NCBI GenBank assembly: GCA_024683775.1
Contig: GCA_024683775.1_4106.1
Length of the DNA: 64,000 nucleotides
DNA from: a phage
Reading direction: 5' to 3' (one strand)
Both the position numbers and the translations under genes were made by a program. Below are positions 1-64,000 of the stretch, piece after piece. The notes under the pieces are model-generated. The model searched no databases. It saw only the letters and a program-made list of their open reading frames with translations, and was not told where the DNA came from. Each line of letters starts with the position of its first letter. Within the stretch, counting starts at the first letter, position 1.

Positions 1-3
1 GAG

Positions 4-585
4 TTGGAAGAAGTTACCAAAGCACAAGATGCTGAATTGGTAGCAATGCAAGCGAACCCTGACGTTGATTCTTTTGCAATCCAGGAGCAAAAGATGATTT
101 GTGAAGCTCTTTCTAAACAGGAAGATAAGATTCGTCGTCTTATCATGATGTGTGAACTGAGCGGTCCTCGCCTGATGAGTATGAAGAAAGTAAACCTCAA
201 CACTGTTTCTAAGTTTGAGGATTTGAAATCAGTTGTTATTCCAGCATGGAAATCACAATTGGCTGAACAGTTGATTTCCGAACGTCAACGTAAAGACAAT
301 GAGTTGGGTAATCTGATTGACAATGAAACTAACCGTTTACTCGAAGTAAACTCTAAAATGGTAGCAACTAACATGTTGGATGCTGCTAAGGCAAATAATC
401 GTGGTATCGTGGATATTAAAACATTGCGTAATGTACACAAAACAATGATCGATAGCATCGAAGCAGTACTGATTGAAGAGAAGAAAGGTAAAGAAGAGCG
501 TGAGCGAGCTAAGATTGAAATCGCAAAACTCTCTCATGAACTTGAAGATACTCTTCGTGAAATTGCTGAAAAAGCTAACAAGTAA
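4..585 (+). CDS. hypothetical K/E-rich coiled-coil protein; probably 5'-truncated by the window edge
   Basis: ORF open to window start in frame; position 4 is TTG; no upstream context visible. Confidence 0.5.
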   Translation: MEEVTKAQDAELVAMQANPDVDSFAIQEQKMICEALSKQEDKIRRLIMMCELSGPRLMSMKKVNLNTVSKFEDLKSVVIPAWKSQLAEQLISERQRKDNELGNLIDNETNRLLEVNSKMVATNMLDAAKANNRGIVDIKTLRNVHKTMIDSIEAVLIEEKKGKEERERAKIEIAKLSHELEDTLREIAEKANK

Positions 586-588
586 TAG

Positions 589-645
589 TTGACACAAGAG
601 TGCGTTTTCGATATAATGTTCTTATTGAAACGCACTCTTTTTTAA
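589..645 (+). promoter_or_regulatory. sigma70-type promoter (TTGACA-N17-TATAAT) embedded in a 12-bp-stem hairpin followed by a T-run
   Basis: TTGACA 589-594, TATAAT 612-617; inverted repeat agagtgcgtttc / gaaacgcactct flanks the -10, then TTTTTT. Confidence 0.5.
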
Positions 646-666
646 TATACAGATAAGGAACGAAAT

Positions 667-1356
667 ATGAAACGCCGTCATGTTAGTGTTGATATTGAAG
701 CTCTCGGTACTCCTGAAAACTCTGGTTATGATATTATTATTCCAAATTATGCAGCAGTAGTTGTTCCAAGTAAACCTGAACATGATATCAGACAATTTGT
801 ATATGTTAAGTTACCATACCAAGCACAAGTCAACGCTGGGCTGAAATCAGATGCAGGTGCAATGGATTTCTGGATGAATACATGTCAGAAGGAATATCCT
901 AATGCATATGCTGAAGTTGCCAGTACTATGGCACTAGTTGCACCAGAATTGTACGGTCCTAATGGTAAATCCAAACAAATCTTTACTTCTAATGGTATTG
1001 TCGATTTCTGGAAAGATATCCGTTTTGATTGTTATGGTAAAGAGGTTGAACATTCAATTTGGGGAAATGGCTGCAACTTCGACTGTAGTATTTTACAAGC
1101 TAATCACTTAAAACTATTGAATGTTGGTGATTTGTGGAAATATGATGCTCCTGAAAACGCACGAACCCTGAAGCGTTTATTGAATGAAGAAGCTCGCACC
1201 GAAATGGATGAGATTGTGTCAGTGCAGTTAGCTAAATTCGTGAAGTATGTAGAAAAATGTGGTATTAATGGTTTGGAATTACATCACCCTCTGTATGATG
1301 CAGCACGTGAAGCTATCCAAATCTCCTATTGTCTCAATAAACTTAAACTGGACTAA
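667..1356 (+). CDS. DnaQ-like DEDDh 3'-5' exonuclease (DexA-like)
   Basis: 229 aa; SD aagga upstream; exo motifs VDIEALG (DxE), GNGCNFDCSIL, HHPLYDAAREA (H-x4-D). Confidence 0.7.
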   Translation: MKRRHVSVDIEALGTPENSGYDIIIPNYAAVVVPSKPEHDIRQFVYVKLPYQAQVNAGLKSDAGAMDFWMNTCQKEYPNAYAEVASTMALVAPELYGPNGKSKQIFTSNGIVDFWKDIRFDCYGKEVEHSIWGNGCNFDCSILQANHLKLLNVGDLWKYDAPENARTLKRLLNEEARTEMDEIVSVQLAKFVKYVEKCGINGLELHHPLYDAAREAIQISYCLNKLKLD

Positions 1357-1359
1357 TAC

Positions 1360-11049: not shown

Positions 11050-11910
11050 ATGAAACCTATCAGAGTACTGTCACTTTTTAATGGAATGAGCGTTGGATAT
11101 ATGGCATTGGCAGATGCAGGTATTCCAGTTGAAAAATATTACTCATCTGAAATTGACAAGTACGCAATTGCTGAATCTTCCGAGAATTTTCCTGATATTA
11201 TCCAGTTAGGTGATGTGACTAAGTGGAAAGAATGGGATATTGAGTGGGATAAGATAGATTTACTCATGGGAGGATTCCCATGTCAAGCCTGGTCTGTTGC
11301 TGGTAAGCAAGGTGGCTTGAATGATATACGTGGACAGTTATTTTTGGTTATGGTTGATATTTTTGAGCACATCAAAAGTGTAAATCCAAACTTGCAATTT
11401 CTGTTCGAGAATGTTAAAATGAAGGAAGATTTCAAAGAATACATTAATAGTATTTTAGGAATCACACCAGTACTGATAAATTCCCAGCATTATACGCCTC
11501 ACTTCAGGCAGAGATACTACTGGTGCAGTACTGATAAGCTTTTTATACCACCTGCATTATCAAATGCCCCTAAACTTCAAGATATCATTGAAGATGGTTG
11601 GTATACTGACAGAACCGCTTCGTACTGTATAGATGCTAACTATTTTAAGGGTGGTGATTGTAACCAGTACTTTAATAAATCAAGACGACAGTTGGTGTTT
11701 CGTGACCCAACGATTAATCGTCAATATCTATTGGAGAATGGTAAAAGAAATATTGACTATAGACACTTAAGTGTAGTAGAATGTTGTAAATTACAGGGTA
11801 TTCCTGTAGATTTCTTTAAAGTGTCTAGTAAGACACAAGCATACAAAATGCTTGGGAATGGATGGACTATGCCAGTTATATCACACTTACTAAGAGAGAT
11901 ATTCTTTTGA
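11050..11910 (+). CDS. DNA (cytosine-5)-methyltransferase, apparently orphan
   Basis: 286 aa; m5C motifs LFNGMSVGYMAL (I), GGFPCQAWS (IV), ENV (VI), GNGWTMPV (X); no restriction endonuclease partner recognised nearby. Confidence 0.85.
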   Translation: MKPIRVLSLFNGMSVGYMALADAGIPVEKYYSSEIDKYAIAESSENFPDIIQLGDVTKWKEWDIEWDKIDLLMGGFPCQAWSVAGKQGGLNDIRGQLFLVMVDIFEHIKSVNPNLQFLFENVKMKEDFKEYINSILGITPVLINSQHYTPHFRQRYYWCSTDKLFIPPALSNAPKLQDIIEDGWYTDRTASYCIDANYFKGGDCNQYFNKSRRQLVFRDPTINRQYLLENGKRNIDYRHLSVVECCKLQGIPVDFFKVSSKTQAYKMLGNGWTMPVISHLLREIFF

Positions 11911-20345: not shown

Positions 20346-20512
20346 CACACAAAGAATGGTTAGATGAACTAAAATTTAAACATAATCCTTTTGGTTTTGG
20401 TATACGCCAAGGTCATTATGATGTGTTAAAAGATAAACAACTTTTCAAATCATTTGTACTTGATGAGGATAGTAATCACTGGTACATCTATGAGCTTGCA
20501 ATTAGGAAATAG
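20342..20512 (+). CDS. MTHxEW mini-protein (56 aa), related to the tandem trio at 21846-22332
   Basis: my translation MTHKEWLDELKFKHNPFGFG...; ATGA-coupled. Confidence 0.4.
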   Translation: MTHKEWLDELKFKHNPFGFGIRQGHYDVLKDKQLFKSFVLDEDSNHWYIYELAIRK

Positions 20513-20522
20513 AAGATATAGT

Positions 20523-20871
<349 letters not shown>

Positions 20872-22171: not shown

Positions 22172-22763
<592 letters not shown>

Positions 22764-22767
<4 letters not shown>

Positions 22768-22792
22768 CTAAATAGTTCAGTACTGATATAAT
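22764..22792 (+). promoter_or_regulatory. class-B promoter TTGACT-aaatagttcagtactga-TATAAT
   Basis: TTGACT 22764-22769, TATAAT 22787-22792. Confidence 0.55.
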
Positions 22793-24127: not shown

Positions 24128-24258
<131 letters not shown>

Positions 24259-27968: not shown

Positions 27969-28236
<268 letters not shown>

Positions 28237-29661: not shown

Positions 29662-29853
29662 ATGTTTTTGAATTTGTTATGCTTATTTGGTCGTACATTG
29701 GTTCTTGCTATTATTCATACACCTGGTATTCGTAATTATGTTTCTTATGAATTTAAGAAAAATTACCACAACAACACTGAAGTTCGTGTAACTAAGATGT
29801 GCAAAGACTTCAATGGAGATGTTCAACCATTCAAGAAGTACGAGGATGAATAA
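29662..29853 (+). CDS. hypothetical protein
   Basis: 63 aa ORF. Confidence 0.45.
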   Translation: MFLNLLCLFGRTLVLAIIHTPGIRNYVSYEFKKNYHNNTEVRVTKMCKDFNGDVQPFKKYEDE

Positions 29854-30137
29854 TGGAATTTATTGTTGCACCTGATGAACTAAAAACATTCACGTTCCGA
29901 GACAATAACAATTATCCTTATATAAATCATTCATTGAATTCATTGCATGTTATTTCAATCATTGCATCTGAATACAGAGACAATCCATGTATTGATTTTA
30001 AAACCACTGATGGTGAATATACATGGGTAGTTCCGAACGATAAATACAGTTATCAGGGTGCAGTGGAGATCCGCGACTCGATTCTAAAGCAAATCGAAGA
30101 TGGACATACTCATCCTAAACTAAACATTCAGTACTGA
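29853..30137 (+). CDS. hypothetical protein
   Basis: 94 aa ORF. Confidence 0.5.
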   Translation: MEFIVAPDELKTFTFRDNNNYPYINHSLNSLHVISIIASEYRDNPCIDFKTTDGEYTWVVPNDKYSYQGAVEIRDSILKQIEDGHTHPKLNIQY

Positions 30138-30150
30138 AATCGTTTAACCG

Positions 30151-30198
30151 GATAGCTTCTAGTCGGTACTGAATTCCTCCTTTTGTCTAGAAGCTATC
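30151..30198 (+). repeat. perfect 12-bp inverted repeat gatagcttctag / ctagaagctatc with a 24-nt loop
   Basis: read directly; intergenic, next to an ATTCAGTACTGAA palindrome at 30126-30138. Confidence 0.6.
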
Positions 30199-30342
30199 AC
30201 TCTTTTAAAGTATAATGATATCACCCTCATGGTTCATTATATTCGTTACCCTCTAACAGTATCTTTTTTATTCCTCTTTGATACTGTATTTTAGAAGTTG
30301 ACATTTTTACTTCTACTGTGTTATACTTAAGGCTGATTCATA

Positions 30343-30795
30343 ATGAATCGGCCTTTTTTTCTTGTGGGGATTAATGTAATGAATAAAGAAGTTATTAGTT
30401 TAATGGATGAGTATATCAACCAAACATATCGTTTTATATTTTTTAATGCATTTGAGTCCAGAACAACGTATTATTCTGGTGAATATGAGATAATAACTGG
30501 ATCATTTCTTAACGGATACATGGAGTTTTTAGAACAAAGCGATAATGTGTTCATTTCCATATCTGAAAAACATGGTAATGATTATGTTATTGATATGTGG
30601 CCTAATAAAGTAGAGATTGATACCACGCACAAAATCGTAATTGATGTGGATGAATCGTTGTATGATTTAACTGAAGATATGTACATGCAACTAAATTTCG
30701 TATACGATCTAACTAACATAAGTTATTCTAATCTAAGTAAATTATTTTATATTTGTGGTGTACTACATAAAAACGTACAACAAAATAAAGGATAA
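30343..30795 (+). CDS. FQxS-signature family protein (YMQL variant)
   Basis: 150 aa; motif EDMYMQLNFVYD. Confidence 0.5.
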   Translation: MNRPFFLVGINVMNKEVISLMDEYINQTYRFIFFNAFESRTTYYSGEYEIITGSFLNGYMEFLEQSDNVFISISEKHGNDYVIDMWPNKVEIDTTHKIVIDVDESLYDLTEDMYMQLNFVYDLTNISYSNLSKLFYICGVLHKNVQQNKG

Positions 30796-30803
30796 ACATT
30801 TAA

Positions 30804-31208: not shown

Positions 31209-31209
31209 T

Positions 31210-32053: not shown

Positions 32054-32064
32054 TACGAGCTTCT

Positions 32065-33342: not shown

Positions 33343-33353
33343 GGAGTAACAAT

Positions 33354-34169
33354 ATGAGCAACATTTTCTTCAAAACCATTTCCTTCAAAAAAGAATCTTA
33401 CTCTTACGCTTATGTAGATGGTAAAGTACTCAATATCGTTCTAGATGGTGTTGATGTACCTGTTCAATTTACCAGTCATCAAGAAGCGATTGAGGGTGCT
33501 CAAGAGCTTAACAGCTTACTAAATGGTATTGAGAAGAAACCTGAAGTTAAATCTGACCTTGATTTATTGGTTGACAAAATTAAAAGTGGTGAACTATTAT
33601 CAATTCTAGACCAGTGTAATGAAAAATTACGTGGTGTTGTTGGTGATGTACGTACTACAGTTCAAGATCGTCTACTTGAGCAAGCATTCAAAGAAGTTAC
33701 TAAGAAAACTGAAGAACGTGTTGAAGGTATGATTAAAAACATTGATGACGTTCTCACTCATATGTTCACCAAGCCATACGAATCAAGTACTGATTCTGAA
33801 GAGAAACAAGAAGAACCAGTAGAACGCACCAAGCCATCTATTGTTACTAAAGTTAAACATAGTTTTGGTTCACTGGATGATGTATTTGGATTTACAAATG
33901 TACGTGTTAGTACTGATGAAAAGCCAGAAGTTGATGAAATGCTAATTGGTGACATGACAACTGGACAACTCAAAAAAGAGATTGATACCTTTGTTAATGA
34001 ACTAATTAGTTCTGAACGTGCTGAAAATATGTTTAGCAGTATTTCAGCAAACTTCGGCAAAGAAGCAACTGAGCAAGCAGTACAGGCATTCAAAGATTTG
34101 ATTTACACTGTTGCAATTGCTAATCCAGAACAAACACTGGAAGAAGTTCTACGTAAAAACTTCAAATAA
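33354..34169 (+). CDS. hypothetical acidic protein
   Basis: 271 aa; SD aaggag. Confidence 0.6.
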   Translation: MSNIFFKTISFKKESYSYAYVDGKVLNIVLDGVDVPVQFTSHQEAIEGAQELNSLLNGIEKKPEVKSDLDLLVDKIKSGELLSILDQCNEKLRGVVGDVRTTVQDRLLEQAFKEVTKKTEERVEGMIKNIDDVLTHMFTKPYESSTDSEEKQEEPVERTKPSIVTKVKHSFGSLDDVFGFTNVRVSTDEKPEVDEMLIGDMTTGQLKKEIDTFVNELISSERAENMFSSISANFGKEATEQAVQAFKDLIYTVAIANPEQTLEEVLRKNFK

Positions 34170-34184
34170 GATATAGATAAAAGA

Positions 34185-34212
34185 AAAGCCACTACAATGT
34201 AGTGGCTTTTTT
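34185..34212. terminator. bidirectional rho-independent terminator between convergent genes
   Basis: agccactaca-atg-tagtggct hairpin with an A-run upstream and a T-run downstream. Confidence 0.6.
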
Positions 34213-34213
34213 G

Positions 34214-35371
34214 TTATGCGTTATAACCAACAATGACTACAGTACAGCCAAATGGTTCAACAACTTTTAATACAACATTATCATCTGCATCGAGTTCAAC
34301 TTCACTTAGAACAACATGATTGTCTTCAGCATAGACTTGAACTTGTGGGAGGATTTTACCATGTTCACTGGCAGGAATGGACAGTGTGTACATAGAATCA
34401 CCATCATCTACCCAATCACTATCGGTATACGTGTTGTGATATGGAGTGGTGTGTAAGGTTTTACCAATAATACTCAATGAGATTGGAGCATCATCAGTTT
34501 GGTACACAGTAATATTACCGCTAGGATCTACAATGAGGTCTACTCCAATTTGGAATAAATCACCACTGTATGCTTGTAGAGCAAGATACTCACCACGCTC
34601 ATGCACAGTAGCTGGTACAGTTGCCATGTACATACCATCGGACGTGTACTCAAACTGAGATAGAAGTACTGAAGTAACGAAGTCAATATCTTCGCCGCTT
34701 TCTAGTATATCAAATTCAATAGTTTTGGTATTATATATGTCAGAAGTGAGTATGATGGTTCCTTTACCGGATTGAGTAATTGGATCAACTGGAATACTAA
34801 AAACATCATCAATTATTTCAGTTGTGAAGTACTCGGTTCCGTCAGGAAGTATAACGGTAATACGCATTCCAGTTGTATCAATGGCTGAACCTGCGTTGAA
34901 TAGGCGACCACCTACCAAATCATCACCTACGAACGTTGGGAACATAAGGATGTTGTCTATATCTCTATCTATAATCCCGCATTCAGGGGTGTACATATTA
35001 TATAGTGTTTGTGAACTACCTAGAATTGTTTTGTGCAAAAGAAACTTATAAACAAACCCAGTAGGATCTGATTCAAGTTTAGCATCTGAGTATCCTCTTA
35101 CGAAAAAAGAGTTCTTTCTTATTTCACTTAGGATTTGGTCATTAGTTTTGTTGTAGTTTAATTGATATCCTTGTATATCCTTTGTTGTAATTTGTACTTT
35201 ACGATAAATTACATTACTTACAGGATCAAGTAAATCATATAATCTATGGCTTCTCTGACGATAGATTCGAACATTTTTGAGTTTAGTCCCATCGTTGAGA
35301 ATTGCACCATCGACTACATATCCACATTCACCGAACTTATATTGTCCAGCAGCAGCAATCGATCTTGACAT
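34214..35371 (-). CDS. hypothetical protein on the minus strand (possibly structural)
   Basis: 385 aa; ATG at 35371 preceded on the minus strand by SD ggaggg; convergent with 33354-34169. Confidence 0.6.
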   Translation of the reverse strand: MSRSIAAAGQYKFGECGYVVDGAILNDGTKLKNVRIYRQRSHRLYDLLDPVSNVIYRKVQITTKDIQGYQLNYNKTNDQILSEIRKNSFFVRGYSDAKLESDPTGFVYKFLLHKTILGSSQTLYNMYTPECGIIDRDIDNILMFPTFVGDDLVGGRLFNAGSAIDTTGMRITVILPDGTEYFTTEIIDDVFSIPVDPITQSGKGTIILTSDIYNTKTIEFDILESGEDIDFVTSVLLSQFEYTSDGMYMATVPATVHERGEYLALQAYSGDLFQIGVDLIVDPSGNITVYQTDDAPISLSIIGKTLHTTPYHNTYTDSDWVDDGDSMYTLSIPASEHGKILPQVQVYAEDNHVVLSEVELDADDNVVLKVVEPFGCTVVIVGYNA

Positions 35372-35487
35372 TCATCCCTCCATTGGTATAATTATTATAA
35401 CGTATTTATTCTAGATAGGTAAAAAAGCACCTTGACTGAGTTGTGTTTTTGACGTATACTTAAATGGAATATCAATAAGGGGATTTT

Positions 35488-36072
35488 ATGAGTGTTGTAG
35501 AAAAACGTTTAGTACTGAAAAATGGTAAAATGACTGTTAAGCTATACAAAGATGAAGCTGATTCTTTTATGGCTAAAGCAATTGAGAAATCCGAACGATA
35601 TAAAATTCTTGCACCTGCAAGTAAATCGCCGTATGGGTTTAATCACGCTCACAGTCATTTTGTTGGTATGGTATGTGAACATGCTTCATTTGTACTTTTT
35701 AATGAAATTGAAAACTATTCAGGTATTGCACTTAACATCGATCCAGCGTTCCAAAGTGATGGACGTGATGGGGAATGTGATATCAAAGTAAACAACTTAA
35801 GAATTGAAGTGAAAGGTATCAAGTACAAATCGTGGACCGACTTTGGACCATGTGTTAGTACTCGACAGTTAAAAAATATACAGAAAAAAGCTGACGTTAT
35901 TCTGTGGGTATTGTATAATGAGAAAAAGCAAGAATTCACATTTGAGGGATTCAACTATGTAAAAGACATTAGTTCGATTCCAGTTGTGCTAACAGGTGTA
36001 CCAGGGCGACCAATGATTGAAAATCACCCAGTACTGAGTATTATTAAACCACTTCAGGAGTTACCATTATGA
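35488..36072 (+). CDS. hypothetical protein; possible PD-(D/E)xK-like nuclease
   Basis: 194 aa; segment GRDGECDIKVNNLRIEVKG fits D...E-x-K spacing; weak. Confidence 0.5.
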   Translation: MSVVEKRLVLKNGKMTVKLYKDEADSFMAKAIEKSERYKILAPASKSPYGFNHAHSHFVGMVCEHASFVLFNEIENYSGIALNIDPAFQSDGRDGECDIKVNNLRIEVKGIKYKSWTDFGPCVSTRQLKNIQKKADVILWVLYNEKKQEFTFEGFNYVKDISSIPVVLTGVPGRPMIENHPVLSIIKPLQELPL

Positions 36073-36296
36073 TTACTGCCACTGTATATCAAGATATTAA
36101 TGAAGAATTTAATTCTAAAATTGCATTTTTATCCTTTCCCGTATTGCCAGCTATTGGTGCTACGTTGAATCTTACAATCTGTGGCTTTGAAAAATACTAT
36201 GAAGTACTAGATATTGAGTACTGTGCCGATGTTTATTCATGCAACAGTGAGATTGCTATTCCTGTGCAAATCGACATTATTGTAAAAGAGGTTTGA
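36069..36296 (+). CDS. hypothetical protein
   Basis: 75 aa ORF. Confidence 0.5.
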   Translation: MITATVYQDINEEFNSKIAFLSFPVLPAIGATLNLTICGFEKYYEVLDIEYCADVYSCNSEIAIPVQIDIIVKEV

Positions 36297-36757
36297 TTAT
36301 GTTTAAACACTTTCTAGTAATCACTGCTGTTGTATTCAGTACTTCCTGCTTCGTTGCACCAGTACATGCGGAAGACCAGCGTCAAACAATCAAGACGATT
36401 GGAACAGGGAAAGCCCAACCAAAACGTACTGCTGAAGAATACATGCCTGAGATGCGTGAACGTTACCGCCAGCAATACCGTGAAAAACATGCTAATGATA
36501 AGCCTATCAAAAAGCATAAATGGAATGTAGTCAAATCGCCATCGTTTTGTGCTGGGTATGCTAAGGTTAAGGATGAACAGCACAACAAGCAGTACTATAA
36601 AGATATGTACACATTCTATGATTCGAGGATCTCGGATGATGACATGATGGCTGCTAAGGTTGATAAAGAAGAATTTCTTCAGGGTTATGACATGACCGAT
36701 GATGACAAGATCATGGAATGTGTTGAAGTATATGAAAAATACAGAGGTTTTGAATGA
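36293..36757 (+). CDS. hypothetical secreted protein
   Basis: 154 aa; N-terminal signal-like segment ending ...APVHA. Confidence 0.55.
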   Translation: MIMFKHFLVITAVVFSTSCFVAPVHAEDQRQTIKTIGTGKAQPKRTAEEYMPEMRERYRQQYREKHANDKPIKKHKWNVVKSPSFCAGYAKVKDEQHNKQYYKDMYTFYDSRISDDDMMAAKVDKEEFLQGYDMTDDDKIMECVEVYEKYRGFE

Positions 36758-37197
36758 CACTTTTGCTGATTCTAGGTTTATTAGTGTCATATTTCATTTT
36801 TCTTAACATCTTCTCTGATGCATCACATTTTGCATATGCTTCAGCTATTGCAAAACACGAAGGGATAAAGAAGTATATTCCTGCATTGTTATTCTCATAT
36901 ATGTACCATCCAAGGTACTTTACACTAGGTGTGTTTGACAAGTATGTATACGACGAAAAAGCACTCAATGAAATTGAATACTTTGTAAGAACTCATGCTA
37001 ATAACAATCCAAAATCATTAATTAACTTTACTGATAATCGTAAACGTGTTAGTATTAGAAGTGACTTGTATCCTACCAGTCACTTTCATCTAGGCGATTG
37101 TAGTGTGTACAGAGTTAGATACGAAAACTTACTGTTACCACCATCACATATAAGATACATAGAAAAATACTTGTTGAAATGTGTTGACTCCAAATAG
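36754..37197 (+). CDS. hypothetical membrane-anchored protein
   Basis: 147 aa, N-terminal TM. Confidence 0.55.
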   Translation: MTLLLILGLLVSYFIFLNIFSDASHFAYASAIAKHEGIKKYIPALLFSYMYHPRYFTLGVFDKYVYDEKALNEIEYFVRTHANNNPKSLINFTDNRKRVSIRSDLYPTSHFHLGDCSVYRVRYENLLLPPSHIRYIEKYLLKCVDSK

Positions 37198-37250
37198 TAA
37201 ATGGCAGTATAATAGCTTCGTACCGCAATAACTGACAAGAGGATTTAACG

Positions 37251-37709
37251 ATGGACGTATTAGCTACTCAATTCAAACGCAACGCAGAAGAACGTGAAGG
37301 TTACCTAAGTATCAGTGAAGTGGTTGAAGATGGATTCAAGCAGTACATTTTCAACAGTGCAATTAAACTGAAGCCAACAAAAGATTCACCGGATCGCAGC
37401 TTCACAAAGTGGATTGCATTCTGGGAAGAGTCACCAATTGCAATCGAAATGACTGTCATTACTACAGTACTGGAAACTGGTTACATCAAAGCAATTGTAG
37501 TTGATAAGAAAGTTCGCACTCTTGATGAAATCGGGACATACCCAGCACGTAACTCTAAAGTATTTGGGTGTTTAGTTGATGGTAAGTTTATGATTGAAAA
37601 AGATGCTAAGAACTATGTAATTGATAAACTACAAACCAGTGCTACTAAACAGGAAGTCGTAGACCAGAACGCAGTGGATGCTATTAAAAAGGCATGGGGA
37701 CTGAAATAA
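37251..37709 (+). CDS. hypothetical protein
   Basis: 152 aa ORF. Confidence 0.55.
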   Translation: MDVLATQFKRNAEEREGYLSISEVVEDGFKQYIFNSAIKLKPTKDSPDRSFTKWIAFWEESPIAIEMTVITTVLETGYIKAIVVDKKVRTLDEIGTYPARNSKVFGCLVDGKFMIEKDAKNYVIDKLQTSATKQEVVDQNAVDAIKKAWGLK

Positions 37710-38131
37710 TGTTCACACTTAGCAATGCAAAGTATCTATTTCTTATTGCTATTATTGGTTGGGTTATGGCTCCAGTGCTTAATGCACTGGGGTTTCCAGA
37801 CGGACATAAACTTGTAAATGTTTCAGGTGTAATCCAGGGCATTTCATGGTATTCATTGATTATATTTTCTATATGTATTCATACATTTGCACGTGATTAC
37901 CGCCGTCTGCTTTTTGTTAAAGTATTCGGTACTAAGAGATATAGTTTTGTGTTTACATTTATTTTAATACCATGTATTATCTATGCTTTTGTATTTGATT
38001 ACTATACTTATCTGTGGGTGTGTGGTTCTATGTTTGTTATGTTGGAATATACAAGAACTGTTCAAAACTCATATGCTGATGAGTATTATGATCTTGAAGT
38101 TAAACGAAAATTAACGGAGCTAAACAAATGA
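37709..38131 (+). CDS. hypothetical multi-pass membrane protein
   Basis: ORF frame 37694-38131; TAATG overlap. Confidence 0.5.
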   Translation: MFTLSNAKYLFLIAIIGWVMAPVLNALGFPDGHKLVNVSGVIQGISWYSLIIFSICIHTFARDYRRLLFVKVFGTKRYSFVFTFILIPCIIYAFVFDYYTYLWVCGSMFVMLEYTRTVQNSYADEYYDLEVKRKLTELNK

Positions 38132-40145: not shown

Positions 40146-41111
40146 GTGAAAAAGCTTGATTTAAATGCAATTTCTGAAGAAGTACTGGATGAGTGTTTTG
40201 CTAGTGAAGAAGTCAACGTATTAGAGGCTCTTGATTCCGTCGAAGAAGAAGAACATGACGGTCACAAGTTTGAGAAACCAAAAACAGGTATCAGCTTAAC
40301 TCGCCCTAAAGGGATAACGAATGAAATGCTCATCCAAGCAGTGCGTGATGGTATTGACGTTGAAAAGAACATTGACCTTTTGGTTCGCTACAACTATCCA
40401 ATGGTAGTAAGTGTTGCACGTAAGTGTACATGTTTTATCCCATTTGAAGATAAGATTTCTTATGGTGTTGAAGGTTTAATGCGAGCAATTCATACGTTCG
40501 ACACTACCAAAAATGTTAAGTTCATTACATATGCAACAACAACTGTGTACATGACAATCTATAACGAAAGTGCAGATGCTAATTATCTAGTGCATTTCCC
40601 ACGTTATATGAGTGTTAATAACATTTATGTGAAACGTTGTGTAGAAGAGTATCAAAGGAAACATGGTAAATACCCAACTCCTGAGATGGTGTCAAAAGAG
40701 ACTGGTATTGAGATTCAACACGTTAAGAATTGTCTAACTTACAGTAACACTTATGTAGCATTGAATATGAAAATGAGTAATGATTCAGAAAGTACATTAT
40801 CTGACATTGTTACTTCAGTTGAACCTGATTACAACTTAGGCGTAGAAACTGTCAGTACCCCACTGGTACAAAGTATTGCAGAAATGATGAGTAACCTATC
40901 TGCCAAAGACCGTGAATTGATTGAACGTGTACATGGTATTGGTTCTTATTCTGAACCCGAAACGCTACGAGAAATCATTGAGAGTGGTTTTGAAGATGAG
41001 AAGGGTAAGGTCATGACTGCTCGTTCTTCATTGCACCGTAAGTACTCTGAAGCAATGGAACGACTGCGTAAGATGGTTAAGACAAAAGGTTATGAGTTCG
41101 AAGATTTTTAA
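40146..41111 (+). CDS. sigma-70 family RNA polymerase sigma factor (phage-encoded)
   Basis: 321 aa, GTG start with SD aggag; region-2-like NYPMVVSVARK...GVEGLMRAIHTFD...KFITYATTTVYMTI; region-4-like HTH ...LREIIESGFEDEKGKVMTARSSLHRKYSEAMERLRK. Confidence 0.7.
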   Translation: MKKLDLNAISEEVLDECFASEEVNVLEALDSVEEEEHDGHKFEKPKTGISLTRPKGITNEMLIQAVRDGIDVEKNIDLLVRYNYPMVVSVARKCTCFIPFEDKISYGVEGLMRAIHTFDTTKNVKFITYATTTVYMTIYNESADANYLVHFPRYMSVNNIYVKRCVEEYQRKHGKYPTPEMVSKETGIEIQHVKNCLTYSNTYVALNMKMSNDSESTLSDIVTSVEPDYNLGVETVSTPLVQSIAEMMSNLSAKDRELIERVHGIGSYSEPETLREIIESGFEDEKGKVMTARSSLHRKYSEAMERLRKMVKTKGYEFEDF

Positions 41112-43420: not shown

Positions 43421-43504
43421 ATGACTTTAGAGATTGTCTTTGGTATTGTTAGCTTAGTCGTCTGTGTGGGTTGGTTTGGGTATCTGATGATTTTTGGTGA
43501 TTAA
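43421..43504 (+). CDS. possible hydrophobic mini-peptide (27 aa)
   Basis: SD aagga; my translation MTLEIVFGIVSLVVCVGWFGYLMIFGD. Confidence 0.3.
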   Translation: MTLEIVFGIVSLVVCVGWFGYLMIFGD

Positions 43505-43507
43505 TAC

Positions 43508-43535
43508 TTGACATAAGATATCAGTACTGTATAAT
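43508..43535 (+). promoter_or_regulatory. class-B promoter TTGACA...cagtactg-TATAAT
   Basis: TTGACA 43508-43513, TATAAT 43530-43535. Confidence 0.5.
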
Positions 43536-43628
43536 GTTTATATCAAAGGGAATGCAGTGAAAGGAAAGACAGCATAATCGTACTCGTCACTGCGTTTCCA
43601 CCCTTTTAAATTAAATGAGGAATTAACT

Positions 43629-43937
43629 ATGTTTCAAACTAACACTCAAGGTTTTGTAATCATCGATTTGAACCAAAACAGCGGTTATTGGATGAAACCT
43701 ACTGACGCATGTATGCAGTTTGATTTTTTAGGTTACAGGATTAGTGTAAGTACTGGTGCTTCTGTACTGCGTGGTGGTTGTATCGTTGAACATCTGGTAA
43801 CAGATCCTGAAGGCCGTGAGTATGAAATCGCAGGTTCAGTACAAGATGCCATTATGTTTGTATGTCAGCGTGAAATGAATAGTTCGAATTCAAATGCACT
43901 GACTCATGCTCTTTCTCAAGAAGTGGAGGTTCGTTAA
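43629..43937 (+). CDS. hypothetical protein
   Basis: 102 aa ORF. Confidence 0.55.
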   Translation: MFQTNTQGFVIIDLNQNSGYWMKPTDACMQFDFLGYRISVSTGASVLRGGCIVEHLVTDPEGREYEIAGSVQDAIMFVCQREMNSSNSNALTHALSQEVEVR

Positions 43938-44188
43938 TGAAATATATCGTAGCAGTACTCGTTGCATTTTTACTCACTGCATGTGACGCTTCAACCAAAG
44001 AACGCACAAGTGATTTTATTCTCCCTATTGAATTACAAGAAGCAGGATGTAAGATTTATCGTATGCAAAAGGACGGTGCTGGCGTAACCTTGTATACAGT
44101 TTATTGCCCTAATGCAAATACCAGTACTGGATACAGCAGCGGTAAAACACGAATCAATACTTCAGTGATTAATGGAGTACAACAATGA
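43937..44188 (+). CDS. putative lipoprotein
   Basis: 83 aa; signal peptide with lipobox LTAC. Confidence 0.55.
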   Translation: MKYIVAVLVAFLLTACDASTKERTSDFILPIELQEAGCKIYRMQKDGAGVTLYTVYCPNANTSTGYSSGKTRINTSVINGVQQ

Positions 44189-47253: not shown

Positions 47254-47486
47254 TATTGAGTTTTGTAGTTGCATTATTGTTTATGTTCTACCCTACACTA
47301 GTAGCAGTAGCCACTAAACGAAAGCTGGTGGATATCACTACTGTATTCTTGCTAAACGTGGCACTCGTTCTAGTGTCTATTATCATTCCCGTGAGCTTTA
47401 CGGTTATTGATATGGCATCTGTATTACTATTCGTCTTCAGTTATCTTATGCTTATTGAAGAAAAACCTGTTGACAAACGTTTGTAG
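47244..47486 (+). CDS. hypothetical small membrane protein
   Basis: 80 aa, two TM helices. Confidence 0.5.
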   Translation: MYLVLSFVVALLFMFYPTLVAVATKRKLVDITTVFLLNVALVLVSIIIPVSFTVIDMASVLLFVFSYLMLIEEKPVDKRL

Positions 47487-47497
47487 TACTGTATAAT
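47470..47497 (+). promoter_or_regulatory. class-B promoter TTGACA...gtagtactg-TATAAT
   Basis: TTGACA 47470-47475, TATAAT 47492-47497. Confidence 0.5.
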
Positions 47498-47544
47498 GGT
47501 TCTTGTAGTCTGAAACTTAACACTTAAACTTGAGGATATAAAAC

Positions 47545-47871
47545 ATGTTATCAGTTCTAATTTCAATTCCTGCTCTAATTCTGTTATGGGTTATGGTTTT
47601 CGAATTCTTCATTAAAGACGAAACCGAGCGTGATGAGTTTCGTGAGTTGTTTATGCTAGACTCACCTATTGCACGAATCTTCTTTGTTGTAGTACTTATT
47701 TCAGTACTGTCATGGTTAGTAAGTTTTGTATTACCAATTGGACCATTTGTTTCAATTATGAATTTAGTTGAGAACATTGTCGGTATTGTGTGGTTTATTA
47801 ATGCATTGTTTGCTGGTAAAGTTTCCATTTGGTTTGATATCTTGAAAGATAAACTAACTAGTAAGAAGTAA
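47545..47871 (+). CDS. hypothetical membrane protein
   Basis: 108 aa, three hydrophobic helices. Confidence 0.55.
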   Translation: MLSVLISIPALILLWVMVFEFFIKDETERDEFRELFMLDSPIARIFFVVVLISVLSWLVSFVLPIGPFVSIMNLVENIVGIVWFINALFAGKVSIWFDILKDKLTSKK

Positions 47872-47949
47872 CGTTCAAAAAGTCTCTAATAGTATTAAAT
47901 ACTTCTGTACAAATAATATGTGCAGAAGTATTGCTCGTTAGAGGTTATA

Positions 47950-48315
47950 ATGAAAAAATATATAAGAATGATAATGGTGTTTGTAGTATTCATGCTTTAT
48001 TCAAGGTTCAGTACAGCCGTACCTGCTTACCTTGATTGTATGGGAAACGATGGAACATGGCATGTACTTTCTAATGACCCACAAAATGGAAACAATATTG
48101 TCGTAGATAATGAGGTTTACCGTTTCAGGGCCGAGAGTTTGATTGGGAATAAAAAGGTATCGACATATAAATCAGATGCTGGTATAATAGCAAATGTAAT
48201 ATTGATAGTGGACCCCAAGACAAAGGATGGGGATATTTACATAGTCATTTATCAAGATTCGTCGAACAAACGCGATCAGGATATTGATAAATTGAATATT
48301 CATTGTGAACTTTAA
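47950..48315 (+). CDS. hypothetical secreted protein
   Basis: ORF frame 47920-48315; signal-peptide-like N-terminus. Confidence 0.5.
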   Translation: MKKYIRMIMVFVVFMLYSRFSTAVPAYLDCMGNDGTWHVLSNDPQNGNNIVVDNEVYRFRAESLIGNKKVSTYKSDAGIIANVILIVDPKTKDGDIYIVIYQDSSNKRDQDIDKLNIHCEL

Positions 48316-58831: not shown

Positions 58832-58833
58832 GT

Positions 58834-58860
58834 TGACAAACTCATTCAGTACTGTATAAT
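58834..58860 (+). promoter_or_regulatory. class-B promoter TTGACA...ttcagtactg-TATAAT
   Basis: TTGACA 58834-58839, TATAAT 58855-58860. Confidence 0.5.
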
Positions 58861-59939: not shown

Positions 59940-60311
59940 ATGAATATAGATTTGAAAGGTGCAACCCGAACTGTCATACTCATTGGGGAATATGCTATCA
60001 AGATTCCAACCTTTAAAAGTTGGAAGCTATTCTTAACAGGGATGATAGCTAACCTCAATGAACGTTCTTGGATGCAGTACTCCAAGCGTAGTGATAGTGG
60101 TATCTGCCCTACGTTGTGGTCATCATGTACTGGACTAGTAACTGTACAGAAACGTTGTAAGCCAGTACAACATAGGGGTTTATTTTGGGTGGAGTTGTGT
60201 GCTTTAGCATTGGATTCAGAGTTGAGTACTGACTTCTTCTATTCAGATGCGAAGCCAGAAAACTTTGGGTATCTGGGTGGTAAGTTAGTTAAACTTGATT
60301 ATGGAGATTAA
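59940..60311 (+). CDS. hypothetical protein
   Basis: 123 aa ORF. Confidence 0.5.
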   Translation: MNIDLKGATRTVILIGEYAIKIPTFKSWKLFLTGMIANLNERSWMQYSKRSDSGICPTLWSSCTGLVTVQKRCKPVQHRGLFWVELCALALDSELSTDFFYSDAKPENFGYLGGKLVKLDYGD

Positions 60312-60312
60312 T

Positions 60313-60600
60313 ATGTACGCACTGTATAATAAAGAAAAGAAACAATTTGCTAAGGTTGAAAAATCGATTGATACATTTGGCATGTTTAAGTACTGTATTG
60401 TGACGGACCCATATGCTAACTTGTATTACGTTCTTGATGACGTATCAGTACTGCAACGATTGCTTGAACGTTCCAAAAGCCAATGCCAAGGTATCCATGA
60501 TGGTTCAACTTATGAAACACCTGAGTGTTCCTATGGCTATCTGGATGGGTATGAGATTGTGAAGTTGGGTGCATTGTTGAATAAATGGATTAAACAATGA
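60313..60600 (+). CDS. hypothetical protein
   Basis: ORF frame 60295-60600. Confidence 0.5.
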   Translation: MYALYNKEKKQFAKVEKSIDTFGMFKYCIVTDPYANLYYVLDDVSVLQRLLERSKSQCQGIHDGSTYETPECSYGYLDGYEIVKLGALLNKWIKQ

Positions 60601-61619: not shown

Positions 61620-61647
61620 TATTTCATCAACTGATGAGGATAACGAA

Positions 61648-62418
61648 ATGACCAGAGAAGCCCGTAGCATTCAAATCCAGAAAAACTTCAACTCCATGAT
61701 GGTTGCTCTTGAGTGTTTGCTCGATGATAGCAGTACTGTAAAAAGTATGGTTGTCAGCGGTGCACCTGGTGTTGGTAAGACTTACACCCTGTCACAACGC
61801 CTCCAGAAAGCTCATGACGCAGCAGAATGGAACGTAGCTACTATCAGTGGTAAGATGACTACTCTTGCTCTGTATGAAGTTCTGTACAAGAATCGTCACA
61901 GCACCAACGTATTAGTACTGGATGATATGGACAGCATCTTTGATTCAGAAGACGGTATGAACCTGCTCAAAGCAGTACTGGACAGCGGTAAACGTACTGT
62001 GTCTTACATGACTAGCTCTAAGTACTTAACTACCAACGGTATCCCTAACAGCTTTGATTTTAACGGTCGTATCGTATTCATTACTAACAAAGATTTGGCA
62101 CTGAATGCTAAAGCTAAAACCAAAATGTCTGCTCACTATGCTGCTCTTATGTCTCGCTCTGTGTATGTTGACTTACAGATCCAGACTAAAAGCGATATCA
62201 TGATTCACATTGAAAACGTAATGAACAAGACCAACATCCTGTCAACTAAAGGTGTTAATAGTAATGGTAGCAAAGCAATCCTGAATTGGATGCTGAAACA
62301 TGAAGATGCACTTCGTGCTCCTTCACTGCGTATGCCTCTGTTGATTTCAGCAGTATACAACAACAACCCGTATGATTGGGAAGAGCAGTGCGAAAACTTG
62401 TTCCTTGAGAAAATTTAA
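61648..62418 (+). CDS. P-loop NTPase (AAA-like ATPase)
   Basis: 256 aa; Walker A GAPGVGKT; Walker B-like VLVLDDMD. Confidence 0.6.
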   Translation: MTREARSIQIQKNFNSMMVALECLLDDSSTVKSMVVSGAPGVGKTYTLSQRLQKAHDAAEWNVATISGKMTTLALYEVLYKNRHSTNVLVLDDMDSIFDSEDGMNLLKAVLDSGKRTVSYMTSSKYLTTNGIPNSFDFNGRIVFITNKDLALNAKAKTKMSAHYAALMSRSVYVDLQIQTKSDIMIHIENVMNKTNILSTKGVNSNGSKAILNWMLKHEDALRAPSLRMPLLISAVYNNNPYDWEEQCENLFLEKI

Positions 62419-62485
62419 TTACATGTATTGACAGTACTACCATAGTGTAGTACTATAACTTAATATTCACCACCGGAGATACGAT

Positions 62486-62824
62486 ATGCTTGAGTTTTTT
62501 AATTCAGATACAATGCTTAGTATTACTTTGATTTATCTGTTTGGTTTTTTCTTTTATCATGCACTAGTTGTAGTACTATGGTATTTTAAAAAGAAAATCG
62601 TTTTCAAACTGTATCCTGATGGAAACATTTCACTACTTCTTTTCACTATTATCCAAGGTATGTTTGCAATTGTTGGTCTTATCGCACACTTAATTTATTG
62701 TGCTAATCCACAGTTGAACTCAATATCACAATATATTGTATTCCTTGGATTACTAATTTGGGTGCTGATATACTTGTTTAATCTCATCATTAATGGTAGA
62801 GCAAAAATTCGTGGGGACTTCTAA
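62486..62824 (+). CDS. small membrane protein, paralog family M
   Basis: 112 aa, three TM helices. Confidence 0.55.
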   Translation: MLEFFNSDTMLSITLIYLFGFFFYHALVVVLWYFKKKIVFKLYPDGNISLLLFTIIQGMFAIVGLIAHLIYCANPQLNSISQYIVFLGLLIWVLIYLFNLIINGRAKIRGDF

Positions 62825-63171
62825 TGTTTGAATCTTATCTTGAGTTTTTAAAGAGTAGTTCTGTTGCACATTCAATTGCAGGGATTATTCTAACAGGTTA
62901 TGTAACATTTTGGGTAGTTATGTTTCTAGGATGGTATTTTAAACGACAATTCTATAAGCGTAATGGTGAAGATTTTATGAATTCTTTCATTAATCAATCG
63001 TTGTTTGCATCAACATTGATAGCATGTATTGTAGCAACACTCACAGGAAAGGTACTGCCAGCATTCTCCGCAGTTTACGGTACATTGGGTATGATATGTG
63101 TAGTTTTTTACTTGACCATTAAACTTTGTTGTGTTATGATTGAACTTCGAAACAAGATACCGGAGGAATGA
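62824..63171 (+). CDS. small membrane protein, paralog family M
   Basis: 115 aa; tail ...LRNKIPEE. Confidence 0.55.
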   Translation: MFESYLEFLKSSSVAHSIAGIILTGYVTFWVVMFLGWYFKRQFYKRNGEDFMNSFINQSLFASTLIACIVATLTGKVLPAFSAVYGTLGMICVVFYLTIKLCCVMIELRNKIPEE

Positions 63172-63506
63172 TGGAATATTTTTTACACTTACTGCCGTGG
63201 TATATGAAAGTTAGTACTATGTACTATATTCTTAGTGCTGGATTCTACTTTCTGATGTGGTTCTTCAAACGACCAATTTCAGTATTCATCTCTGATAACA
63301 TGCTGCAATTAAAATTACACGCATGGTTTGGTATGGCGATGTTCATGCCTATTATTCACTACTCAATGATTAGTAGAGGGTTCCGTTCCAATGGTGAACC
63401 AATTATATTAGTATTCTATTGGGGTTCAACTATTGCATATGTAAGTTTGTTGTTGTTCCCAGTCGTTCATAAATTACGTGCTAAAGTTCCTGATGCGAGG
63501 TACTAA
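63168..63506 (+). CDS. small membrane protein, paralog family M
   Basis: 112 aa; tail ...LRAKVPDARY. Confidence 0.55.
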   Translation: MMEYFLHLLPWYMKVSTMYYILSAGFYFLMWFFKRPISVFISDNMLQLKLHAWFGMAMFMPIIHYSMISRGFRSNGEPIILVFYWGSTIAYVSLLLFPVVHKLRAKVPDARY

Positions 63507-63820
63507 TGGATATCGTAACATTGATTTACACGCTTTATTCATTCTATTTTATTATGTGTTGGGTTGGATTTTTATTTGTATTGAAGATGTTTGATTATGT
63601 TGAAAAACAGATAAAAGAATTTTGTATTCCTTTTATTGGGTCAACCATAATTAGTATTACTTGTTTGTATTATTTGGTATGTGATCCACCTGTTAATACA
63701 GCAATGATTGACTTCATGTTATTACCAACAACTGTTATTTTTTTATGTAGTCTGATGCCACCGATTAGTCGTGGGCTAACCGAATTTAGACGCAATCAAA
63801 AGCGTAAACGAGGGATGTGA
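63506..63820 (+). CDS. small membrane protein, paralog family M
   Basis: 104 aa, TM helices. Confidence 0.5.
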   Translation: MDIVTLIYTLYSFYFIMCWVGFLFVLKMFDYVEKQIKEFCIPFIGSTIISITCLYYLVCDPPVNTAMIDFMLLPTTVIFLCSLMPPISRGLTEFRRNQKRKRGM

Positions 63821-64000
63821 TGGAAATTGCACTTATTATATTAACTGCTATGTTGTTTATTAGTACAATTGTTATTATTGGCAAGTTCTTCTGTGTATCC
63901 TTCTTGGAAACCGTATACGATGAAATTGCTGATGACTATGAATTACATGCAGGATTTTTTACTACGTATTGGATTAGTTTATTACTACTTATCACTGTAT
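63820..64000 (+). CDS. small membrane protein, 3'-truncated by the window edge
   Basis: ATG 63820 overlapping the upstream stop; hydrophobic. Confidence 0.4.
   Translation, partial: MEIALIILTAMLFISTIVIIGKFFCVSFLETVYDEIADDYELHAGFFTTYWISLLLLITV

Follow-up and report, generated by a model that had tools for sequence, protein, structure and literature searches.

We analysed a stretch of 64,000 nucleotides of phage DNA (GenBank assembly GCA_024683775.1, contig GCA_024683775.1_4106.1), hereafter called the window, for the six-base palindrome AGTACT, which occurs throughout it. A megablast search with positions 30000-38000 gave 98-99% identity to the 350-386 kb E. coli jumbo phages WPEC5, WPEC3, CMSTMSU, TH47 and fEgEco12, and about 80% identity to the PBECO4/121Q/slurp01 group. 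On these similarities the phage can be classed as an Asteriusvirus-type member of the Rak2-like jumbo myoviruses. The window has a G+C content of 34.5%. Our own open reading frame (ORF) calls, which were used for the codon-aware null models and for assigning frames, number 147, with 141 on the plus strand, and cover 88.5% of the window. The element under study is the following:

1-64000, no strand: array of 171 dispersed AGTACT sites with consensus cAGTACTg and core GTAC, described by their positions, frames, flanks, spread and conservation.

The exact count of 171 copies corresponds to 2.67 per kb, and AGTACT ranks first among all hexamers in the window, followed by AAAGAA with 120 copies. 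From base composition (order 0) 21.6 copies are expected, a 7.9-fold excess, while Markov models of order 1, 2 and 3 predict 18.6, 35.9 and 64.9, respectively. The order 4 expectation is as high as 141 because the pentamers AGTAC (269 copies) and GTACT (253 copies) are enriched themselves. A preliminary description of the window had claimed the over-representation from hand-sampled counts and suggested a full hexamer count against a Markov order 3 null. The sampled counts were exact (four sites in 60001-60600, three in 43441-44040 and three in 47401-48000), and the full count showed the over-representation to be stronger than first thought.

Two codon-aware nulls were applied to the ORFs, which contain 154 of the sites. 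When the amino acid sequence and the codon usage of each gene were kept fixed (synonymous shuffle), 40.6 ± 6.0 sites were expected, so that the observed number is 3.8-fold higher (z = 18.8). Permutation of the codons gave 21.8 ± 4.3 expected sites (7.1-fold, z = 30.6). In a repeat of the codon-aware run, CAGTACTG was seen 34 times against 4.3 expected. Because 3.8-fold and 7.1-fold excesses are left under these nulls, the result lies above the two-fold limit, relative to the codon-shuffled expectation, at which the over-representation was to be given up. The models of order 0 to 3 and the two shuffles together rule out an artefact of composition or Markov structure.

The sites are found in all kinds of sequence, including coding sequence as had been noticed before. 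Plus-strand ORFs hold 148 of them, read as AGT-ACT (70), NAG-TAC-T (29) or NNA-GTA-CT (49); six lie in minus-strand ORFs and 17 are non-coding or at ORF edges. The density is 2.7 per kb in coding and 2.3 per kb in non-coding DNA, and the enrichment is seen in every frame as well as in intergenic DNA. The last 30 bp upstream of start codons are devoid of sites, but otherwise the distribution along genes is flat, and each 4 kb of the window contains between 7 and 14 sites. Spacing was no different from random at distances up to 400 bp, both in the window and in pooled non-redundant clade DNA of about 313 kb, apart from slightly more pairs than expected at 20-22 bp. Clustering, periodicity and regular spacing were therefore rejected for the window and the pooled DNA, scales of 10-90 kb reaching beyond a 64-kb window.

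The surroundings of the sites are symmetric. The hexamer is preceded by C in 42% of cases and followed by G in 54%, left flanks and reverse-complemented right flanks are alike (chi-square p = 0.15), and TTC/GAA is the top flanking triplet on both sides. At position -1, C is enriched and G is depleted in every genus. The half-sites are independent of each other, and long palindromic operators were ruled out, since extension beyond the hexamer is close to chance. Each clade member has a 2.0-3.2-fold excess of the GTAC core. An excess of 2.2-2.7-fold is also seen for variants in which the outer positions are A or T, and variants with a broken core occur at expectation, so that an excess of neighbours is found only at the outer positions; GGTACC and CGTACG have zero copies in the window. 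Recognition thus looks graded and not all-or-none. One-sided variants (AGTACV and BGTACT) are balanced in nine of ten clade loci, and given this balance, the palindrome and the symmetric flanks, the traits of an oriented word, asymmetry and strand bias, are absent. Individual sites or pairs of interest are:

20691-20708, no strand: perfect palindrome of 18 bp, TTCTTCAGTACTGAAGAA, within ORF 20463-20735.
28207-28220, no strand: perfect palindrome of 14 bp, ATTCAGTACTGAAT, an extended form of the word in intergenic DNA, kept in slurp01.
30127-30138, no strand: palindrome of 12 bp, TTCAGTACTGAA, at the stop codon of ORF 29853-30137.
62433-62454, no strand: two sites 16 bp apart in non-coding DNA, TTGACAGTACT...AGTACTATAACT, the first of which overlaps a -35-like TTGACA.

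Two intergenic palindromes had been reported previously. For ATTCAGTACTGAAT at 28207-28220 both sequence and position are exact. For ATTCAGTACTGAA at 30126-30138 the position is exact as well, but the element overlaps the stop codon of ORF 29853-30137 and is not purely intergenic.

The word leaves its mark on the encoded proteins. Ser-Thr dipeptides occur 138 times, compared to 76 expected from amino acid frequencies, while the reverse dipeptide Thr-Ser occurs 73 times. Ser-Thr is spelled AGT-ACT in 72 cases (52%) against 18.7 expected (14%), and Val-Leu is encoded by GTA-CTN 71 times against 30.6 expected. The usage of AGT and ACT codons outside the sites is ordinary. Because Ser-Thr itself is inflated, the DNA word drives the protein sequence and not the reverse; the excess acts on nucleic acid and not on protein. 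The idea of a codon-pair effect, also raised in the preliminary description, found no support, given that every frame and intergenic DNA are enriched and that the use of Ser-Thr is raised rather than followed. Likewise, a codon-pair or dipeptide preference should have been absorbed by fixing amino acids and codon usage, after which 3.8-fold is left. The window also encodes a transfer RNA (tRNA) for serine with the unusual anticodon ACT at 24164-24255 (plus strand), the exact reader of the word-inflated AGT codon, which is present in slurp01 too. It was rejected as a clade-wide adaptation, as fEgEco12 has a tRNA-Ser(GCT) at the same place.

To compare the sites between related genomes, 45.6 kb of the window was aligned to slurp01 (84.9% identity). 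Of the 132 sites in the alignment, 102 (77%) are conserved, compared to 47.5% of all hexamers. Per-base identity is 0.90-0.96 in the sites and about 0.86 in the flanks, and the effect is present in each frame and in non-coding DNA. Third codon positions, taken where the first two bases are unchanged, are 92.6% identical in sites and 78.1% elsewhere (p = 4e-8), and non-coding bases are 94.7% identical in sites and 85.4% outside (p = 0.02). The rate of change in the sites is therefore about one half of that in the flanks, and at synonymous positions about one third. Gains and losses against slurp01 are balanced (30 and 27). Across genera, where the orthologues share 39-46% amino acid identity, 5 of 35 sites of the window have a counterpart at the same codon and in the same frame, with 0.10 expected; most positions have turned over, and the density is equal on both sides. 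Relative to the synonymous shuffle, one-mismatch neighbours of the word are at 0.6-1.6 of expectation (0.74 for AGTATT, 0.68 for AATACT), and sites are made or destroyed by many kinds of substitution, transitions and transversions, with no single dominant type. The conservation, the mild depletion of neighbours and the mixed substitutions together favour selection on the word over a drive by mismatch-specific repair. A strong depletion of donor words, as expected for a Vsr-like drive, was not found. On this evidence, selection on the DNA itself keeps AGTACT at high density in the Rak2-like lineage. The positive selection proposed earlier is in this way supported by the frames and non-coding DNA, the symmetric flanks, the synonymous conservation and the proteins bent to the word.

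The word was then counted in pieces, not whole genomes, of related and unrelated phages. In the clade the results were:

fEgEco12, 276-324 kb: 127 AGTACT, 7.9 times expectation.
fEgEco12, 1-50 kb: 204 AGTACT, 12.3 times expectation.
slurp01: 144 AGTACT, 8.5 times expectation.
RaK2 (Klebsiella): 119 AGTACT, 7.1 times expectation.
GAP32 (Cronobacter): 253 AGTACT, 15.2 times expectation.
CBB (Pectobacterium): 72 AGTACT, 8.6 times expectation.
fHe-Yen9-04 (Yersinia): 77 AGTACT, 9.3 times expectation.
SE_PL (Salmonella): 65 AGTACT, 7.8 times expectation.
XbC2 (Xanthomonas): 75 AGTACT, 9.4 times expectation.

Asteriusvirus, Alcyoneusvirus, Mimasvirus, Eneladusvirus, SE_PL and XbC2 thus show a 7-15-fold excess (six of six clade groups), in contrast to all five outgroups. 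No excess was seen in the pieces of the sister lineage PA5oct (1 copy, 8.4 expected), T4 (8, 8.3 expected), Lak-A1 (3, 7.8 expected) and the Vibrio jumbo phage 2.275.O (2, 8.0 expected), and the sampled 25 kb of UAB_1, an unrelated AT-rich Salmonella phage, contains none (8.4 expected). A 50-kb sample of E. coli K-12 holds three copies, or 0.06 per kb, where 11.6 copies are expected, making the word about 45 times denser in the window. AGTACT is under-represented both in the UAB_1 piece and in the E. coli sample, and, except in the Rak2-like lineage, this host environment seems to disfavour it. Since the clade is positive, including a Xanthomonas phage, and the outgroups are negative, the trait follows the phage lineage and not the host. 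The excess is therefore a shared derived character of the Rak2-like lineage, independent of host order. Full-text searches of the available literature library found no published report of an AGTACT excess, or of the absence of GCGC described below, in these phages, and the genome papers on RaK2, CBB, Sharanji and fEgEco12 mention neither word.

A second word shows the opposite behaviour. GCGC, the HhaI/HinP1I site, does not occur once in the window, where composition predicts about 56 copies and the synonymous shuffle 26.9, and the non-redundant clade DNA (313 kb) has none either. Its frequency is normal in PA5oct, T4, UAB_1 and Vibrio phage 2.275.O, and the E. coli sample contains as many as 6.8 per kb, so that the GCGC loss and the AGTACT excess have the same phyletic pattern. 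The preliminary description had set the enrichment against a general avoidance of palindromes by phages, and this background is indeed present: 28 of the 64 six-base palindromes have no copy in the window, including GGTACC, CGTACG, CTGCAG, CAGCTG, CCATGG and GCATGC (6-12 expected each), and CGCG, CCGG, GGCC, CTAG and GATC are at 0.2-0.5 of expectation. Thus the lineage avoids restriction-type sites generally and forbids GCGC absolutely, yet multiplies AGTACT.

A small part of the sites lies in promoters, which were searched for with the pattern TTGAC[ACT]-N15-18-TA[TAG]AAT. The following matches in the window carry the word next to the -10 element:

22343-22370, plus strand: predicted sigma-70-type promoter TTGACT-N9-AGTACT-G-TATAAT, with the word 1 base upstream of the -10; identical in slurp01.
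22764-22792, plus strand: predicted sigma-70-type promoter TTGACT...AGTACTGATATAAT, with AGTACT 2 bases upstream of the -10; identical in slurp01.
43508-43535, plus strand: predicted sigma-70-type promoter TTGACA-N9-AGTACT-G-TATAAT; identical in slurp01.
47470-47497, plus strand: predicted sigma-70-type promoter TTGACA-N9-AGTACT-G-TATAAT; the slurp01 spacer differs by 1 base, and the word is kept.
58833-58860, plus strand: predicted sigma-70-type promoter TTGACA-N9-AGTACT-G-TATAAT; the slurp01 spacer differs by 1 base, and the word is kept.

The motif AGTACTGTATAAT, which had been noticed in promoter spacers 5' of the -10, was found at 22358, 43523, 47485 and 58848. Exactly 1 base separates AGTACT from the -10 that follows it in 4 of 24 promoters of the window (2 bases in one more), in 9 of 17 promoters of fEgEco12 1-50 kb and in 3 of 7 of GAP32, where the junction base between word and -10 differs. 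By chance, placement at any one offset is expected in about 0.3-0.4%. In two genera, then, AGTACT occupies one and the same place, -19 to -14, within a set of strong sigma-70-type promoters that are presumably early.

The word is denser still in the opening 20 kb of two genome records. Its density reaches 6.6 per kb in the 21-kb terminal repeat of fEgEco12 and 6.7 per kb in the first 20 kb of GAP32, compared to 2-3 per kb elsewhere in these genomes and 1.5-2.3 per kb in conserved structural genes of RaK2. Most consensus early promoters in the first 20 kb of fEgEco12 and GAP32 have AGTACT adjoining the -10. An island of about 10 kb at 27-38 kb of fEgEco12, outside the window, contains zero AGTACT and zero TGTACT; here AGTACA is present in 37 copies (29-36 kb), in three frames and all on the coding strand, a situation unique among the loci read.

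Two further observations concern transcription. A cassette of about 30 bases, GGTTGACTTCGGTCAGCCCTTTTTGCTATAAT, is repeated on the plus strand at 49249, 52843, 53622, 56383, 61007 and 61590 and is shared with a Yersinia phage (position 13298 of its piece). It contains a terminator-like hairpin whose stem holds the -35 TTGACT, a T-run in the spacer and TATAAT thereafter, so that terminator and promoter appear to be fused. A sigma-70-family factor is predicted at 40326-41111 (plus strand), with regions 2 and 3 detected. It shares only 33-60% identity through the clade, and is also present in Vibrio and Lak phages without the word.

Two genes of the window were considered as possible readers of the word:

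11050-11910, plus strand: predicted C5-cytosine DNA methyltransferase, 286 aa, DNMT3-like (PF00145, TIGR00675, full-length match to DNMT3A/3B).
35488-36072, plus strand: predicted PD-(D/E)XK-fold nuclease, 194 aa (phrog_16175), the best-conserved protein of the region.

The methyltransferase aligns end to end with the catalytic domain of DNMT3A/3B, better than with the methylases of HhaI or HaeIII. The GAP32 enzyme shares 74% identity with it, and those of Justusliebigvirus phages about 50%; a 50% identical homologue is encoded by UAB_1, whose sampled 25 kb has zero AGTACT. CpG methylation has been reported for RaK2 (PMC3622015), in agreement with a DNMT3-like, CpG-type enzyme. For fEgEco12, the published digests with ClaI, NruI and SmaI speak against a general methylation of CpG (PMC13070987). 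As the word contains no CpG, the enzyme is CpG-type and a homologue occurs in an AGTACT-free phage piece, this methyltransferase is unlikely to be the reader, and the earlier suggestion that it might protect ScaI/RsaI sites is unsupported. Because fEgEco12 DNA was cut in the predicted patterns by ten enzymes, ScaI and RsaI not among them (PMC13070987), bulk hypermodification of the DNA is excluded. PA5oct, on the other hand, encodes momylation and deazaguanine systems (PMC7824862).

The PD-(D/E)XK protein is 64-70% identical across genera, far above its neighbours, and has invariant His55, His57, Cys97 and Cys122, which could bind a metal. It was found in 72 phage records, of which only one is not Rak2-like: Vibrio jumbo phage 2.275.O, with neither the AGTACT excess nor the GCGC absence, has a copy of 33% identity. 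The protein co-occurs with the trait in 10 of 10 clade genomes checked. Some genomes that are not strongly enriched carry homologues of 33-41% identity, and many uncharacterised phage proteins share the fold, which leaves co-occurrence by descent as the only link. The protein might tentatively be considered a reader of AGTACT or of GCGC. No methylase adjoins its gene in the window. In CBB, Yen9-04 and XbC2 a 180-aa class-I methyltransferase-like gene lies two genes upstream of the nuclease; it is absent there in the window and in SE_PL and its class-I fold is generic, which makes a restriction-modification module around the nuclease unlikely. A contig from a JGI metagenome with a remote homologue of the nuclease is small and temperate-phage-like, has zero TTAA and contains GTAC at 0.24 of expectation, a further case of extreme usage of palindromes.

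Taken together, we think it probable that a factor of the phage lineage reads AGTACT on duplex DNA. Such a factor would be two-fold symmetric and encoded by the lineage itself, and the graded recognition makes a dimeric sequence-specific DNA-binding protein the most likely form. With the word nearly missing from host DNA, binding would be selective for phage DNA, and AGTACT would serve as a sequence-encoded 'self' mark in a lineage without base hypermodification. Once bound, it may protect or compact the DNA, or recruit the replication or transcription machinery, and at promoters with AGTACT between the -35 and the -10 its occupancy may gate early transcription. In its specific form, in which a dimeric phage protein binds AGTACT, acts selectively on phage DNA and by the same occupancy gates early promoters, this reading is tentative and stands somewhat below an even chance. 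An extension to both words seems doubtful to us: here AGTACT, multiplied to thousands of copies, and GCGC, eliminated, with the host showing the opposite, would be used by phage proteins to tell phage from host DNA instead of the base modifications of T4 and PA5oct, one factor occupying or activating AGTACT-rich DNA and gating early promoters and a nuclease shredding GCGC-rich host DNA. The binding site of a phage DNA-binding or transcription factor, as proposed in the preliminary description, thus stands as the best reading, with no reader found among the candidates checked.

Several points weigh against a binding protein of this kind. Among the candidates in the window, only a PD-(D/E)XK nuclease of a generic kind is unusually conserved, and it has remote homologues in word-free genomes. 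The phyletic pattern is that of a single origin by descent, which cannot single out a gene. Joint palindromic extension past the hexamer is barely above chance, so that most sites are not part of a long operator; a strict enzyme that prefers certain flanks would produce a pattern similar to that of graded recognition, and the site conservation would also arise under a continuing sequence-directed drive. Only about 3% of the window sites lie in promoters, with the rest spread evenly through genes, and no promoter-embedded AGTACT was seen in the shorter pieces of RaK2, CBB, Yen9-04 and SE_PL. The AGTACA island is unexplained by a purely symmetric duplex reader and would fit a process of fixed direction. 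Finally, the host density comes from a single 50-kb sample of E. coli K-12.

Of the other explanations, it is unlikely, in our view, that AGTACT is the target of an orphan phage methyltransferase or another site-specific modification. The mark itself would then matter, for protection from nucleases such as those of the ScaI/RsaI type, for the distinction of parental and new DNA or for methylation-sensitive early promoters, as in a phage counterpart of the cyanobacterial palindrome HIP1. Such a role would suit a palindromic six-base site of the classical type II kind and a position adjoining the -10, where methylation can alter promoter strength. The clade genomes all encode at least two methyltransferases according to the RaK2, CBB and Sharanji papers, GAP32 has a Dam-family enzyme (PF05869), and HIP1 provides a precedent (PMC4390886, PMC5861425). 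Extrapolated from the pieces sampled, each genome has more than 1,000 sites for ScaI and several thousand for RsaI (GTAC), which would leave these phages very exposed unless protected; the UAB_1 piece and the E. coli sample are poor in the word. However, modification alone leaves the benefit of more sites unexplained, the only methyltransferase of the window is DNMT3-like, CpG-type and does not track the trait, and the literature reports neither a methylome nor ScaI/RsaI digests for these phages. Moreover, 5-methylcytosine at the site is disfavoured by the pattern of losses, among which AGTATT and AATACT, the products of C-to-T decay, do not predominate. Rather less likely again is a preferred processing site of an enzyme of phage DNA metabolism, either a Holliday-junction resolvase or a nicking or cutting nuclease in recombination-dependent replication, possibly the 35488-36072 protein, or a primase start (template 5'-cAGTA, giving pppACUG-type primers). 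The fixed promoter position would be unexplained in this case, and RaK2 already has an endonuclease VII-like debranching enzyme. Known primases read three-base sites that need no enrichment. A palindrome would nevertheless serve both strands at once, the sites are spread evenly over the genome with a higher density in the terminal repeats, where concatemers form, the graded core-plus-flank pattern is typical of the cleavage preferences of enzymes, and the strand-specific AGTACA island fits a process of fixed direction. The PD-(D/E)XK protein resembles Hjc resolvases and blunt-cutting type II enzymes and combines conservation (64-70% across genera) with co-occurrence (10 of 10), but the latter is by common descent only, with 33-41% identical homologues in genomes without strong enrichment and a fold widespread in phages.

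A neutral molecular drive without function, in which Vsr-like mismatch repair or biased gene conversion during T4-like recombination turns near-sites into sites, is improbable. Precedents for a drive are CCWGG, which Vsr makes over-represented in E. coli, and uptake sequences, which have been modelled in this way. Conserved sites at a held density, as well as the mildly low AGTATT and AATACT (0.74 and 0.68), would be expected. Against this, neighbours are not strongly depleted (0.6-1.6-fold) though the sites exceed expectation by more than 110, gains and losses are of mixed substitution types and not of one mismatch, and neighbours are in excess only at the outer two positions, as in graded recognition. 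A drive predicts neither the fixed promoter position nor the 2-3-fold higher density of the terminal repeat, and the same argument has served to reject biased repair in the case of HIP1 (PMC5861425). A codon-pair, dipeptide or RNA-level signal, such as a preference for Ser-Thr or Gln-Tyr, tRNA supply or a cleavage or structure motif in messenger RNA, is scarcely credible, even if AGT-ACT is the commonest frame (70 of 154 coding sites), the window and slurp01 carry the AGT-reading tRNA-Ser with anticodon ACT and the AGTACA island of fEgEco12 is strand-specific. All three frames are enriched, the non-coding density equals the coding one, symmetric flanks are needless for an RNA signal, Ser-Thr is inflated (138 against 76, with 73 for the reverse), AGT/ACT use outside the sites is ordinary and fEgEco12 has tRNA-Ser(GCT) instead; the codon and RNA readings are essentially excluded. 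The same is true for the site of a host protein, for instance the nucleoid-occlusion factor SlmA or operators of the LexA or TrpR type, to which we give hardly any weight. The SlmA box GTGAGTACTCAC has an AGTACT core, and most hosts of the clade are Enterobacterales. Yet among 1,036 sites there are no full and three relaxed SlmA boxes, GAGTACTC is the rarest flank combination (7 of 1,036) and LexA-type boxes are absent. Furthermore, the Xanthomonas phage XbC2 has the trait (9.4-fold), while the piece of the enterobacterial phage UAB_1 has zero sites. SlmA and LexA were therefore rejected as readers, and host factors in general are essentially excluded.

That a lineage multiplies a restriction-type palindrome until it is the most frequent hexamer, at a measurable cost to its proteins, implies a strong use of the word. 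The puzzle posed by HIP1 is about 30 years old (PMC5861425), and AGTACT would give it a first counterpart among viruses, one far more open to manipulation, as the phage can be grown on E. coli K-12, the sites can be recoded synonymously and oligonucleotides can serve to capture readers. If the presence of AGTACT and the absence of GCGC do separate self from host DNA, this would be an alternative to base modification for a 350-kb virus, and if both words are read in this way, genome-wide word usage would be a part of the infection machinery that co-evolves with its readers. In practice, the two words would then provide a metagenome signature for the lineage, a predictable behaviour towards ScaI, RsaI and HhaI, and design rules for the engineering of therapeutic-candidate phages.

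Among known systems, Chi (GCTGGTGG), KOPS and the DNA uptake sequences are also short words far above expectation that run through coding DNA at a cost to proteins. There, a trans-acting machine (RecBCD, FtsK and the uptake machinery, respectively) treats its own DNA unlike foreign DNA, as may be the case for AGTACT. These words are asymmetric, biased in strand or orientation and read directionally, and their readers are known; AGTACT differs in being palindromic with symmetric flanks. T4, with its hydroxymethylcytosine, cytosine-specific nucleases and Alc, illustrates the need of a T4-related lineage to tell its own from host DNA. In the lineage studied here two words separate phage and host (AGTACT 2.7 against 0.06 per kb, GCGC 0 against 6.8 per kb), so that discrimination would lie in sequence and not in chemistry, provided that a phage protein makes use of the words; the RaK2 paper describes no hydroxymethylase or glucosyltransferase genes (PMC3622015). 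The word is identical to the ScaI site (AGTACT) and contains that of RsaI (GTAC), with the same two-fold symmetric recognition logic. Phages normally lose such sites, whereas this lineage avoids most GC-rich six-base palindromes yet multiplies AGTACT, and no cognate methylase or endonuclease was found. The sites of nucleoid organisers (SlmA boxes, Noc sites, matS, GATC/SeqA) are similar as scattered palindromes through which a dimer acts on a whole DNA molecule, but they number tens per megabase compared to thousands for AGTACT, whose flanks disfavour the SlmA box and whose excess is independent of host order.

The closest resemblance is to HIP1 (GCGATCGC) of cyanobacteria. Both are short perfect palindromes that are hyper-abundant genome-wide, in and between genes and in all frames. 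Both are conserved between related genomes beyond the background and present lineage-wide, and both are attributed to selection rather than biased repair (PMC5861425, PMC4390886). HIP1 differs in being an octamer of a cellular phylum with a 15-300-fold excess, a reported periodicity of 10-90 kb and two known orphan methylases that read its inner sequence. AGTACT is shorter, a hexamer built around GTAC, and belongs to a lineage of viruses, with a 7-20-fold excess, no periodicity up to 400 bp and no cognate methylase identified, and has in addition a fixed placement in presumed early promoters and a density peak in the terminal repeats. As HIP1 is the nearest known element, we class AGTACT as a highly iterated palindrome, here in a virus, with promoter and terminal-repeat features of its own.

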